A DNA stretch of 64,000 bases, from the IMG/VR virus record IMGVR_UViG_3300012944_000001, positions 47,915 to 111,914 of that record; one strand, 5' to 3'. Position numbers and translations under genes: made by a program. Under the pieces are notes generated by a model. It did not search any database and had not been told where the DNA came from. It worked only from the letters and a program-made list of their open reading frames with translations. This document shows, one piece after another, positions 3,526-15,200 of the stretch; the stretch's first letter is position 1; the number at the start of each line of letters is the position of its first letter. The DNA comes from a virus.

Positions 3526-3845
3526 TGGGTTATTATTCTACATTTGAAGTACTAGAGACAGATATTATTGACGCTTATACAGTATTAAATGATTTGACTG
3601 AGTCAGACTGGGATAGTTCGCCCGGTTTTTCCTATTGGGATTCTAATAATAGTGTTCATTCATATGATTCAGCTAAGTGGTATGACTGGTTGACAGATCT
3701 GGGACAGCTTGCTAGACTCTACCCAGACAGTTACTTAGTAATGGAACGTCGTGGAGAAGAATCCCCTGATATTTCCAGAGTCATAGTAAAGCACGGAAAA
3801 GCCGTAGAGATTGAGCCAGAGCTGGTGTGGCCTGAAGTTCTGTGA
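3525..3845 (+). CDS. hypothetical protein
   Basis: coupled ORF, 106 aa. Confidence 0.75.
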   Translation: MGYYSTFEVLETDIIDAYTVLNDLTESDWDSSPGFSYWDSNNSVHSYDSAKWYDWLTDLGQLARLYPDSYLVMERRGEESPDISRVIVKHGKAVEIEPELVWPEVL

Positions 3846-7340: not shown

Positions 7341-8960
7341 ATGGGTAAGTTCAATAAGGTTAACAGCACAGGCGTTCAGTCACCTATAAAGACTGTAGGA
7401 AAGATTATTAATCATGATGCTCGTGTAGCTTTTGCGCGGGATACCCAGTCTGAACTGTATTTGTTTGCAGTATCCAACTTTGTTGGTCAGGATACGTTCT
7501 ATGAGAATGCTAAGGCCAGCGATGATCGCTTTGTTATCCTTTCTCAAAAGGCCGCTGTAGCAGATCGTGCCTGGTTTGGCTACTTCGTGAGCTGGCTTCG
7601 TAACGAGGCATTCATGCGTAGTGCTGCTGTTGTGGCGGCTGTTGAGGGTGCCAAGGCATTACACGCGGCTGAGTCGTTTGTAGGGGCTGAGAATGCCTCC
7701 TGGCCCCGTCATATAGTTAGTGCTGCTCAAGCACGAGCTGATGAGCCCGGTGAAGTATTAGGATACTATGAAGCTAAGTACGGTAAGAATTTCCCGGCTT
7801 GGTTAAAGAAGGGTGTTGCGGACGGCGCAAAGCGTCTCTATAATGAGTATTCTCTTCTTAAGTACGATACAGTTTCTCACGGTTATCGTTTTTCTGATGT
7901 AATTCAGCTTACTCACCCTAAGCCTGATAATGAAATACAGGAACAACTATTTAAGTACGCGATGAATAGTCGATACAATAACACAGAGTTTGTTGGCCGA
8001 GAGAATCATCTGCCCATGATAGAGACTCGTAAGGCTATTATGGAAATGCCTGTTCGTAGTCGAAAGGCACTTATAGGTAAGGGCGGAACAGAGGTACAGA
8101 GCCTATTCAAGAATGCAGGAATGACGTGGGAAGCTCTGTCTGGCTGGCTTCAGGGTCCTATGGATGCTGCGGCTTGGGAAGCCGTTATTCCTTCTATGGG
8201 ATACATGGCGCTGCTTCGTAATCTTCGTAATTTCCAGAATGCTGGTATCCGTGCTAAGGTGCTGAAGGAAGTTCTTGGTAAGCTTGCTGATTTCGAGCAG
8301 GTTGCAAAGAGTAAGCAGTTCCCTTTCCGATTCCTTGCTGCTTACCAGGCAAATAAGGATAATCTACAGATCTCTGCCGCGCTAGAGAGTGCTTTGCAGG
8401 CTTCTTTGGCCAATGTCCCTTCCCTTAATGGGAATAGCTTGATTCTAGTTGATCGCTCTGGTAGCATGTTCCAGACTGGTGGAGGTGTCCAAGGACTCGA
8501 TCGTGCAGACACGGCTGCTATTTTCGGTACCGCTCTGGCTATGCAAGCAGAAAAGGCTGATCTTGTGCAGTACGGTTCAGCATGGTATGGTCAGGATAGT
8601 TCTTCCAAGGTAGTATCTTTCCGTAAGGGGAATTCTATTCTGCCGATGCTCAGTAAGTTTGAGAATCTTGGCGGAACAGACACCACTGGAGCTATTAAGC
8701 GACACTTGACACCGAAGCATGACCGAGTTATTCTCATCACTGATGAGCAGTACAACGGCTATGGTGTCGATCCAGGAAGCATTGTTCCTGCTAAGATTCC
8801 GATGTACACTTGGAATCTTGGAGGATATCAAGCGGCTCACAGTGAGTCTGGTTCAAAGAAGCGTCACACCTTTGGCGGATTGACTGATAAGGCATTTGTA
8901 CAGATTCCTATGATTGAGGCTGGGCAGAATGCTGTATGGCCTTGGGAGGCTAAGAAGTGA
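7341..8960 (+). CDS. rsr: Ro60/Rsr-like TROVE-domain RNA-binding protein with C-terminal vWA domain
   Basis: TFYE, R.DEPGE, MTWEALS, MGYMALLRNLRN, SKQFPFRFL motifs; vWA MIDAS LVDRSGSM, GGTD, ITDEQ. Confidence 0.93.
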   Translation: MGKFNKVNSTGVQSPIKTVGKIINHDARVAFARDTQSELYLFAVSNFVGQDTFYENAKASDDRFVILSQKAAVADRAWFGYFVSWLRNEAFMRSAAVVAAVEGAKALHAAESFVGAENASWPRHIVSAAQARADEPGEVLGYYEAKYGKNFPAWLKKGVADGAKRLYNEYSLLKYDTVSHGYRFSDVIQLTHPKPDNEIQEQLFKYAMNSRYNNTEFVGRENHLPMIETRKAIMEMPVRSRKALIGKGGTEVQSLFKNAGMTWEALSGWLQGPMDAAAWEAVIPSMGYMALLRNLRNFQNAGIRAKVLKEVLGKLADFEQVAKSKQFPFRFLAAYQANKDNLQISAALESALQASLANVPSLNGNSLILVDRSGSMFQTGGGVQGLDRADTAAIFGTALAMQAEKADLVQYGSAWYGQDSSSKVVSFRKGNSILPMLSKFENLGGTDTTGAIKRHLTPKHDRVILITDEQYNGYGVDPGSIVPAKIPMYTWNLGGYQAAHSESGSKKRHTFGGLTDKAFVQIPMIEAGQNAVWPWEAKK

Positions 8961-9122: not shown

Positions 9123-9195
9123 GGGCCTATAGCATAATTGGGAATGCACCTCTTTTGCAAGGAGACGAGTGTCGGTTCGAATCCGACTAGGTCCA
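9123..9195 (+). tRNA. tRNA-Ala(TGC)
   Basis: G3:U70 acceptor pair; loop tttgcaa. Confidence 0.85.
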
Positions 9196-9322
9196 CGCGG
9201 AAGTCCGTATTAGCTACCTAAACCGGTTGGGTCGGACCCAGAACGCTAATAACATGGGATAACAGAATATTAAAGAAAGTTAATTCGGCCGAATTATACC
9301 TACTAGTATTTTGCCCATGCAT

Positions 9323-11866: not shown

Positions 11867-12070
11867 ATGGCAAAAGTAGGCGACATCGTAAAGATGCAAA
11901 AAGGAACATACAAGGATCGTCTGGGAGTAGTTATTGCTATCCGTAATAATATTCTGTGTGATGTAAAGCTAGCTCGTCCAGGTGAGCGGCGTTCCAGAAT
12001 TAGTCTGGATATGCCTGGAATAGTAGTTACCAATTGTCTTGAAATTGAAGATTTCATCATATCTAAATAG
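11867..12070 (+). CDS. KOW-motif microprotein
   Basis: KVGDIVKMQKGTYKDRLGVVIAI fits the KOW consensus. Confidence 0.75.
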   Translation: MAKVGDIVKMQKGTYKDRLGVVIAIRNNILCDVKLARPGERRSRISLDMPGIVVTNCLEIEDFIISK

Positions 12071-12076
12071 TTTTAT

Positions 12077-12155
12077 GGGTCTGTAAGGTTTCGTCTGAAC
12101 TTAAAGCCGCACGTCGGAAACTTTCAGCACCCCGGTTCGATTCCGGGCAGATCCA
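12077..12155 (+). ncRNA. miniature tmRNA (tRNA-like domain only)
   Basis: gggtctg/cagatcc acceptor with G3:U70 and A discriminator; stemless D loop taaggtttcg; P2 ctgaa/ttcag; 3-nt linker; T arm cccgg-ttcgatt-ccggg. Confidence 0.75.
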
Positions 12156-12159
12156 CTTT

Positions 12160-12236
12160 GCGCATTGATCTAATCCGCATGGTGTGGAGTTGGTCTGCAA
12201 AACCAATGATTTCCGGTTCGATTCCGGTAATGCGCT
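12160..12236 (+). tRNA. tRNA-Cys(GCA), atypical D arm
   Basis: gcgcatt/aatgcgc acceptor; loop ctgcaaa; U discriminator. Confidence 0.8.
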
Positions 12237-12249
12237 CTTGGAGGATAGC

Positions 12250-13887: not shown

Positions 13888-14124
13888 GTGCGTCCATGGA
13901 CTAAAGATGAAAGAGAAGCATATAAAGATTCGACCATGCATTATCACAAGTACGATCTCTATGGATATGTAGATGATCTTATTGAGACTTGGCACACTTC
14001 TATGGGCCTAAATGTTTCTCTTTATAGTTTCCTAGGACTTTACGAAGGAGAAGTGTCAGACTGGGCCGGTAAGAATATCATTCCGGATCGTATTGTAGTT
14101 ATGTGGGAGGAAGGAGAATACTAA
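13888..14124 (+). CDS. hypothetical protein
   Basis: GAGGAGG RBS. Confidence 0.7.
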   Translation: MRPWTKDEREAYKDSTMHYHKYDLYGYVDDLIETWHTSMGLNVSLYSFLGLYEGEVSDWAGKNIIPDRIVVMWEEGEY

Positions 14125-15200
14125 TGCTTATACATGATTTACTTAACATCCGGGATTTAGATACTATGCTTACGGAAGGTTATGTAAGATTTGGTATTCA
14201 TCCCATTTTTCCAAATGTTCGTATATTTAACTACACTGAAAAGGCTCAATTCGCCAACGAGTGGAATGACATAACTCGACAATGCCGTGGTCTTATAGTT
14301 GATTGGGATACCAAAGAAGTACTTGCGCGCCCTTTTGACAAGTTCATGAATTATGGTCAAGATCAGGCAGACGTAATTCTTGCTGGCTATTCAGTTAAGG
14401 TATATGACAAGTTAGACGGATCTCTGGGAATTCTATTTCGTCGTCCTGATGGTTTTTGGGAAATAGCTACAAGAGGTTCCTTTCAATCAGACCAGGCGTC
14501 GCATGCCACAATACTTCTTCGTCAAAAGTACAGTTCGTTTTTACTGGGATTAAATAGTGATCTTACATATATGTTTGAAATCATCTATCCACAAAACCGT
14601 ATCGTATTGGATTACGGAGACAAAGATTCCCTGGTATTACTTGGTGCCAGAAGTATTGACGAAGGCTCTACGTACGGGCCTGAGAGCCTCCCAGATTGGC
14701 ACTGGGACCGAACTACTACCTTCCCTTACAAGACTCTCAGTGAGGCGCTGAAGGCCCCTCCTAGACCTAATGCAGAGGGTTACGTGGTCTACTTCCCGGA
14801 GTTGGACCACAGAGTCAAGATCAAGCAGGATGATTACATAGCGATGCACAAGATCGTTACGGGCTTGACAGAGCGTCGTATCTGGGAGAACATGAAGGAA
14901 GGTAAAACTCTAGAAGATCTTGTAAATATTATTCCAGACGAATGGCATGATTGGCTCCAAGAAACGTATACTAAGATCAAGAAAAATTATTGGGCTGAAT
15001 GGAGTACTATTCTTGAGGAGTTTAATACACATACCATGTGGTTGGACGTGGCTAATTATCAAAAATGGTCCCGAAAAGATTTTGCTTTGCGAGTTAAAGA
15101 CTCAAGATATAAAGGCTTTATGTTTTTAATGTTGGATAATAACAACGTAACTGACAAGGTATGGCAATTGGTTCGACCACCCGCTGAGTCATTACTGTAA
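14124..15200 (+). CDS. ATP-dependent RNA ligase, T4 Rnl1-like
   Basis: CRG.I, RPFDKF.N, KLDGS (motif I), FEII, EGYVV, RVKIK. Confidence 0.92.
   Translation: MLIHDLLNIRDLDTMLTEGYVRFGIHPIFPNVRIFNYTEKAQFANEWNDITRQCRGLIVDWDTKEVLARPFDKFMNYGQDQADVILAGYSVKVYDKLDGSLGILFRRPDGFWEIATRGSFQSDQASHATILLRQKYSSFLLGLNSDLTYMFEIIYPQNRIVLDYGDKDSLVLLGARSIDEGSTYGPESLPDWHWDRTTTFPYKTLSEALKAPPRPNAEGYVVYFPELDHRVKIKQDDYIAMHKIVTGLTERRIWENMKEGKTLEDLVNIIPDEWHDWLQETYTKIKKNYWAEWSTILEEFNTHTMWLDVANYQKWSRKDFALRVKDSRYKGFMFLMLDNNNVTDKVWQLVRPPAESLL

Follow-up and report, generated by a model that had tools for sequence, protein, structure and literature searches.

A putative tag-less tmRNA of the DS6A type in a BRock-like phage and its relatives in phages and prophages

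Full-length tmRNAs are encoded by the mycobacteriophages Bxz1 and Wildcat and by Bacillus phage G. A phage tmRNA consisting of the tRNA-like domain only ('TLD only') is described once in two reports (PMC4131195, PMC11915505), namely in mycobacteriophage DS6A, where it is listed as tmID 11587 of the tmRNA Website. According to the same reports, a similar molecule strongly inhibits tmRNA whether or not it can be charged, perhaps by titrating SmpB (Mao et al. 2009, via PMC4131195), and this inhibition came with expression in E. coli (PMC11915505). Two laboratory precedents are summarized in PMC3929946: a TLD fragment which, together with SmpB, makes polyalanine on ribosomes in vitro without mRNA (Shimizu and Ueda 2006), and a 63-nt TLD construct from T. 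thermophilus (PDB 2CZJ; Bessho et al. 2007). In plastids of Mallomonadaceae, forms of tmRNA without a coding sequence measure about 65 bp (PMC11915505). For phages, the literature known beforehand amounted to the single example of DS6A and one heterologous inhibition experiment.

Here, we place an element from an IMG/VR phage genome in the DS6A family and report syntenic, unannotated copies of it in cultured Streptomyces phages. The family is further distinguished by a covarying pair of D-loop and linker bases, an invariant alanine identity set and the lack of an encoded partner.

Sequence, fold and identity of the element

The window, the whole stretch of DNA analyzed, is the right-hand 64 kb (64,000 nucleotides) of an IMG/VR phage genome that measures 111,914 bp and carries direct terminal repeats. 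The element occupies 79 nt at 12077–12155 on the plus strand, and its letters agree exactly with those quoted in the preliminary description. Its 7-bp acceptor stem joins GGGUCUG (12077–12083), in which G1, G2 and G3 form the alanine-identity side, to CAGAUCC (12148–12154), which includes U70 of the G3.U70 pair. The stemless D-loop analogue, UAAGGUUUCGU (12084–12094; 11 nt), bears the tmRNA motif GGUUUCG(U), the counterpart of GGUUUCGAC in actinobacterial tmRNAs, and closes with a U at 12094 that is a covarying variant of A. It is followed by P2, a 5-bp stem of CUGAA (12095–12099) and UUCAG (12123–12127), all five pairs of which covary across 100 listed sequences. The 23 nt closed by P2 comprise an A-rich 5' bulge, CUUAAAG (12100–12106), whose A-richness is seen in alignment columns; an apical mini-hairpin, CCG-CACGU-CGG (12107–12117), common to DS6A (CCG-CACG-CGG); and a 3' bulge, AAACU (12118–12122), the first base of which, directly after the hairpin, is A in 78 of the 100 listed sequences. 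The linker CAC (12128–12130) takes the place of GAC in tmRNA; between the linker's C and the U at 12094 there is covariation. The T arm, CCCGG-UUCGAUU-CCGGG (12131–12147), has four of five pairs that covary among listed members. Beyond the acceptor stem stand the discriminator A73 and C74 (12155–12156); CCA is not encoded, and the sequence reads A-C-U-U-U.

These features bear out the reading in the preliminary description of a tmRNA's tRNA-like domain without an mRNA-like domain: the fold is as described, both ends match the Rfam tmRNA model RF00023, and the G3:U70 pair, A discriminator, stemless D loop, 3-nt linker and P2 loop of about 23 nt all read as it had them. The 23-nt P2 loop is too short to accommodate a tag frame or pseudoknots. 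Within this loop there is no resume codon with a stop-terminated frame, and PK1–PK4 are absent, the P2 strands being only 23 nt apart. A reading frame starting from the GCC at 12106 enters the T arm without a stop. Folding the element's sequence by itself gives z = -1.2, which is uninformative.

ARAGORN and Rfam had been proposed as checks of this reading. ARAGORN is silent at the element, calling neither a tRNA nor a tmRNA and no tag. RF00023, run against the whole genome, does respond, with 43.8 bits (E 1.7e-17) at 12077–12158; the alignment spans the model from end to end (1–374) with its middle deleted, and the score lies just below the 47-bit cut-off; a match of this kind is far from what chance would produce. 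In the Rfam clan comparison at the element, the tmRNA model out-scores the tRNA model, and the element has neither the D arm nor the anticodon arm with an Ala anticodon of a tRNA-Ala. A separate coding piece, which had also been suggested as something to look for, is not present: RF00023 and R1, a covariance model built from the element and four relatives, each detect just one locus in the whole genome (111.9 kb) and thus no second piece of a permuted tmRNA. The genome's only match to RF04321 (18.6 bits) falls on the element's own T arm. In the first samples, R1 scored family members at 48 bits or more and tRNAs at 28 bits or less.

The sole other locus in the genome touched by R1 (21.1 bits) is the tRNA at 9123–9196. 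ARAGORN labels it Cys(GCA), but canonical geometry, with 26 nt before the anticodon stem and a 5-nt variable loop, gives the anticodon UGC. Given this anticodon together with G3.U70 and A73, the gene almost certainly encodes a tRNA-Ala(UGC) of the phage. Since the phage has this separate tRNA, the element is not its alanine tRNA.

On this evidence, 12077–12155 putatively encodes a tag-less, TLD-only tmRNA of the kind known from DS6A. It departs from canonical tmRNA (RF00023) in scoring below the gathering threshold and in having no mRNA-like domain and no pseudoknots.

Covariation, distribution and annotation of the family

A first pattern scan of viral contigs, based on the D-loop and T-loop motifs, returned homologues whose stems differ in sequence yet still pair. 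At least 120 loci, approximately, were found by a second scan, which required the apical hairpin, and likewise by a third, which demanded only GGUUUCGAC...GGAC and is for this reason unbiased for the middle of the element. Two partly overlapping sets, of 100 and 97 sequences, were confirmed with R1. In all, the family comprises at least about 200 R1-confirmed phage and prophage sequences of 74–90 nt with a common architecture.

The stems of the family are maintained by compensatory change. In the 100 listed sequences, standard pairs fill 98.6% of the pair cells, compared with 72% when shuffled and 35–53% with slid partners, and changes on both sides of a pair number 509 where 143 are expected. 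For the second listed set, of 97 sequences, the figures are 97.9% standard pairs and 528 changes on both sides. The acceptor, P2 and T stems also emerge independently when RNAalifold is applied to a plain, unfitted MAFFT alignment; acceptor positions 4–6, P2 and the T stem covary among listed members. The alanine identity set was not demanded by any scan pattern, whereas the T loop UUCGANU was fixed by the patterns used. G1-C72, G2-C71, G3.U70 and A73 occur in all 100 listed members of the first set, and in the second listed set the three pairs occur in 97, 96 and 95 of 97, respectively.

The preliminary description had flagged two normally conserved spots as altered. These positions do differ, but they have not decayed: GUC...GCAC and GAC...GGAC are covarying alternatives, the former being the rarer, at about 11% of the listed family. 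Counted jointly in the 100 listed sequences, the D-loop and linker bases are A/G in 64, U/C in 11 and C/U in 7; a D-loop U is accompanied by a linker C in 11 of 12 cases, and GCC...GUAC constitutes a third form. Both GAC/GGAC and GUC/GCAC are found within the BRock lineage. As the two bases covary, a non-canonical pair between them is suggested, consistent with a tmRNA-like TLD architecture.

The middle of the molecule also has a conserved design, with a P2 of 5–8 bp, an A-rich 5' bulge, an apical hairpin of 3–4 bp and a short 3' bulge. Alignment columns 49, 51 and 53 of the bulge are A in 96, 86 and 71 of the 100 listed sequences, and the A-rich bulge is general also in the sample unbiased for the middle. 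In the listed matches of that sample, the third pair of the apical hairpin covaries (GC 54, CG 11, AU 7, UA 4). The twelve commonest 3-nt trailers, which cover 86 of the 100 listed members, all start with C; full CCA is encoded in 10 of the 100. From these comparisons, the element is evidently a gene under selection and not the remains of a tmRNA in decay.

Three more specific interpretations of the middle were discarded. In a stop-codon-only tmRNA, alanine would be followed by the UAA of the bulge as a "resume" codon. All of the first eight homologues have UAA or UAG in the bulge, but a stop triplet is present in just 66 of the 100 listed members and is missing from GiJojo (CGAAAG), locus L010 (GAAAAG) and DS6A (ACGAAAA); what the bulge conserves is A-richness, not a codon. 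A suppressor tRNA with a UUA or CUA anticodon was rejected because the preceding bases vary (GUA, AUA). Nor is the hairpin a remnant of the host resume region, as five actinobacterial tmRNAs lack CCGCAYG and their resume contexts differ.

The large terminase of the element's phage shares 80–83% identity with its counterparts in the Streptomyces phage BRock and in four sister phages. The preliminary description had proposed a search of related phages for same-length homologs and had allowed that relatives might hold full tmRNAs instead; the close relatives BRock, GiJojo, L009 and L012 proved to carry 78–79-nt versions at the same site. R1 scores the copies in BRock and GiJojo, both unannotated, at 76.5 and 82.2 bits, and these share a syntenic site with tRNA-Val on one side and tRNA-Cys on the other. 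The annotation of BRock puts the syntenic tRNA-Cys on the opposite strand, apparently by mistake. R1 also recognizes the DS6A locus (JN698994, 28478–28557; 56.5 bits, E 2.4e-14). This links the two RNAs, and a tag-less phage tmRNA is not unprecedented, given the earlier publication of DS6A.

Beyond these phages, an unannotated copy with a CCC/GGG hairpin is present in Stenotrophomonas phage Jojan60 (ON045087; L237:1451-1530; 72.3 bits with R1). The family is therefore not restricted to actinophages, the host of Jojan60 being gammaproteobacterial. Microbacterium phage Armstrong (NC_048090; L236:1438-1527) has an unannotated 90-nt form with a 32-nt middle, which R1 scores at 40.9 bits and from which a tRNA-Asn starts 10 nt downstream; the copies in its relatives are known by BLAST match only. 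BLAST adds further copies in the Streptomyces phages LuckySocke, Alone3 and pSt2308.

Prokaryotic genomes yielded 19 R1-confirmed copies, 13 of them in Actinomycetota, and the copy in Micromonospora adjoins a phage portal gene. Five of the copy-bearing genomes retain their own full-length tmRNA (128–170 bits). Three prophage copies in two of these five, Streptomyces and Pseudonocardia genomes, score 58–60 bits with RF00023, above the Rfam cut-off. In five actinobacterial genomes, the tmRNA of the host has the sequence GG(U/C)(U/C)UCGAC, and its TLD motifs are those of the phage RNAs. R1-confirmed copies also lie on short non-actinobacterial MAG contigs assigned to Saccharibacteria/Patescibacteria (L196, L184, L175), Phycisphaerales (L190) and Synechococcaceae (L194). 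These may be misbinned phage contigs or may reflect a wider host range.

The family also matters for annotation practice. ARAGORN reports tmRNAs at L103:5905-6228, L090:10221-10616 and, in BRock, L047:3463-4088, which we rejected as pseudo-tmRNAs on account of their arbitrary 5' domains and the message 'Tag not identified'. The artefact arises when the 3' half of a copy is joined to arbitrary flanking sequence, in full-length or permuted form, and such joins are likely a source of spurious phage tmRNA annotations. In GiJojo (PP725410), the CDS of gene 44 (L048:3558-3800) starts 2 nt before the copy at 3560-3637 and overlaps it; this CDS call, or at least its start, is probably wrong. ARAGORN either misses these genes or invents false full-length tmRNAs around them, and at least one GenBank CDS overlies one of them. 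The same RNA stands unannotated in cultured, easily grown phage-host pairs, represented by Streptomyces, Stenotrophomonas and Microbacterium phages.

Genomic context and candidate functions

The element is embedded in an array of 28 tRNAs. A gap of 6 nt separates it from the stop codon of a 67-aa ORF upstream, and one of 4 nt from the next array gene, a tRNA-Cys(GCA) called by ARAGORN at 12160–12237 on the plus strand. This tRNA-Cys is 78 nt long, scores low with the Rfam tRNA model (40.9 bits) and has a D arm that is enlarged and irregular. The 67-aa ORF (11867–12070), which has a weak match to DUF2187 (E 0.008), is one of several microproteins among the tRNAs and is conserved only within the BRock-like lineage. 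The array is flanked by a TROVE/Ro60-like protein with a VWA domain (7341–8960) and a T4 Rnl1-type RNA ligase (14103–15200); DS6A carries an RtcB-like ligase gene. A promoter and terminator scan gave nothing above chance: two promoter-like sites (10809 and 10882), each at 11/12, and no plus-strand terminator before the element. When the ORFs neighbouring the 100 listed loci were clustered for a partner gene, no family occurred in more than 11 loci. The neighbour families are lineage-specific, and those matched by Pfam belong to replication (DnaB-like, primase zinc ribbon, Endo VII).

Functionally, we consider it probable that the RNA competes with host tmRNA through host SmpB. It would be transcribed with the tRNA/small-ORF array and excised like a tRNA, with RNase P cutting at G1, an RNase P cut at tRNA-Cys(GCA) setting the 3' trailer, and host enzymes trimming that trailer and adding CCA. 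Covariation shows a fold equivalent to the upper half of a tRNA, set on a short P2 stub that ends in a small hairpin. Under the identity rules of tRNA-Ala and tmRNA, G1-C72, G2-C71, G3.U70 and A73 would make the RNA a substrate of host alanyl-tRNA synthetase. Its tmRNA-type D-loop, linker and T-loop would likewise make it a ligand of host SmpB, bound at the D-loop/T-loop elbow. It would then rival host tmRNA for SmpB, and probably also for EF-Tu and for the vacant A site where ribosomes have stalled. Because the RNA has no resume codon or tag frame, trans-translation could not be completed and competition with host tmRNA would follow, leaving ssrA tagging uncoupled or blocked during infection.

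Some further observations bear on this competition. The phage genome contains no gene for SmpB (PF01668), no RF-1/ArfB domain gene (PF00472) and no conserved partner gene, from which we infer dependence on the SmpB of the host. By analogy, competition gains support from the inhibition published for a similar molecule, and the decoy role put forward in the preliminary description corresponds to the reading given in the literature for such molecules. Four points count against it: some phages (lambda-immP22, Mu) need trans-translation, the model gives the conserved A-rich bulge and apical hairpin no part to play, the element scores below the Rfam cut-off, and it carries the rarer U/C variant. In addition, that inhibition was independent of chargeability, whereas conservation of the identity set is absolute. 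For this reason, the RNA may do more than titrate passively.

A less probable alternative is active, tag-free rescue or alanine tailing, in which the charged RNA, with host SmpB and EF-Tu, would take over the nascent chain on stalled ribosomes. The chain would then be freed untagged, through drop-off and peptidyl-tRNA hydrolase or through ArfB-type factors, or several alanines would be added over repeated rounds. The invariance of G1-C72, G2-C71, G3.U70 and A73 in about 200 divergent listed sequences argues that charging is under selection, and the C that follows A73 in each of the twelve commonest trailer types points the same way. The template-free polyalanine made in vitro by a TLD fragment with SmpB (cited in PMC3929946) suggests that a charged RNA of this kind may enter stalled ribosomes. 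No release mechanism is encoded, however: the genome has neither an RF-1/ArfB-like domain nor a conserved partner gene, and the inhibition in E. coli occurred without chargeability (cited in PMC4131195). As a tentative extension, phages might run a template-free rescue RNA in which the A-rich bulge and apical hairpin replace a step normally performed by the mRNA-like domain; translocation, release-factor recruitment and drop-off would be the candidate steps. If this were true, the RNA would be the natural counterpart of the polyalanine activity seen in vitro. The invariant identity set makes two questions directly testable, namely the reason why phages disturb ribosome rescue and the choice between blocking and replacement as the action of these RNAs on it.

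The arrangement of the locus also invites comparison with t-elements, tRNA-shaped signals that would recruit RNase P/Z to cut the tRNA/ORF transcript and leave an excised RNA without function. The short spacings to the ORF stop and to tRNA-Cys fit such a signal, as does the presence of a tRNA within 300 nt, nearly always on the same strand, at 33 of the 100 listed loci. Yet 58 of the 100 lack any nearby tRNA, and RNase P/Z needs neither G3.U70, A73, the covarying D-loop and linker, nor the bulge and hairpin. We regard this account as improbable. Conjectural in nature is a decoy for a host defence nuclease or modifier acting on the acceptor ends of tmRNA or tRNA-Ala, which is very improbable: the RNA-centred island of TROVE/Ro60, Rnl1 and 28 tRNAs and the RtcB-like ligase of DS6A speak for it, but ligase or repair genes do not regularly accompany the RNA at the listed family loci, and the proposal is pure inference. 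Finally, a decaying tmRNA or tRNA-Ala pseudogene, or a tmRNA-derived half attachment site, is almost certainly the wrong description despite the sub-cut-off Rfam score, the silence of ARAGORN and the two positions that differ from consensus, as relatives both near and far keep the size and architecture through compensatory changes, the two positions covary with each other, both acceptor halves are present, the phage has its own tRNA-Ala(UGC), and BRock-type phages have no predicted lysogeny genes (PMC7453282).

Comparison with known systems

The DS6A RNA is the closest match to the element. Both are phage-borne and about 80 nt long, and both combine a G3.U70/A73 acceptor with a tmRNA D-loop and linker, a short P2 and a T arm. 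The likeness extends to the middle, where DS6A has an A-rich bulge and an AA-CCG-CACG-CGG apical hairpin as in the element. The two differ in setting: DS6A is a temperate siphovirus of M. tuberculosis with a solitary copy, whereas the element belongs to a 112-kb BRock-like phage, akin to virulent Streptomyces phages, and sits within its 28-tRNA array. They also differ in motif, DS6A having UGGUGGUCGAC with a CAC linker and the element the GUC/GCAC variant.

Laboratory TLD fragments resemble the element in that the ends of tmRNA are joined by a short capped helix, and they bind SmpB and, together with it, act on ribosomes (cited in PMC3929946). Those fragments are artificial and capped by UUCG, in contrast to the natural family with its conserved A-rich bulge and apical hairpin of its own. 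Canonical tmRNA (RF00023) shares a homologous TLD, and the motifs GGUUUCGAC ... GGAC-T arm-acceptor-A-C are identical to the actinobacterial ones. Unlike canonical tmRNA, the element is without pseudoknots, resume codon and tag frame, and measures 79 nt compared with 365–397 nt in the hosts examined. Organellar tmRNAs without a coding sequence, such as those of jakobid mitochondria (PMC1370551, via PMC11915505), likewise consist of a tRNA-like domain with no tag. They are the sole tmRNA of their organelle and a product of reductive evolution, whereas the element is supplied by a virus in addition to the intact tmRNA of the host.
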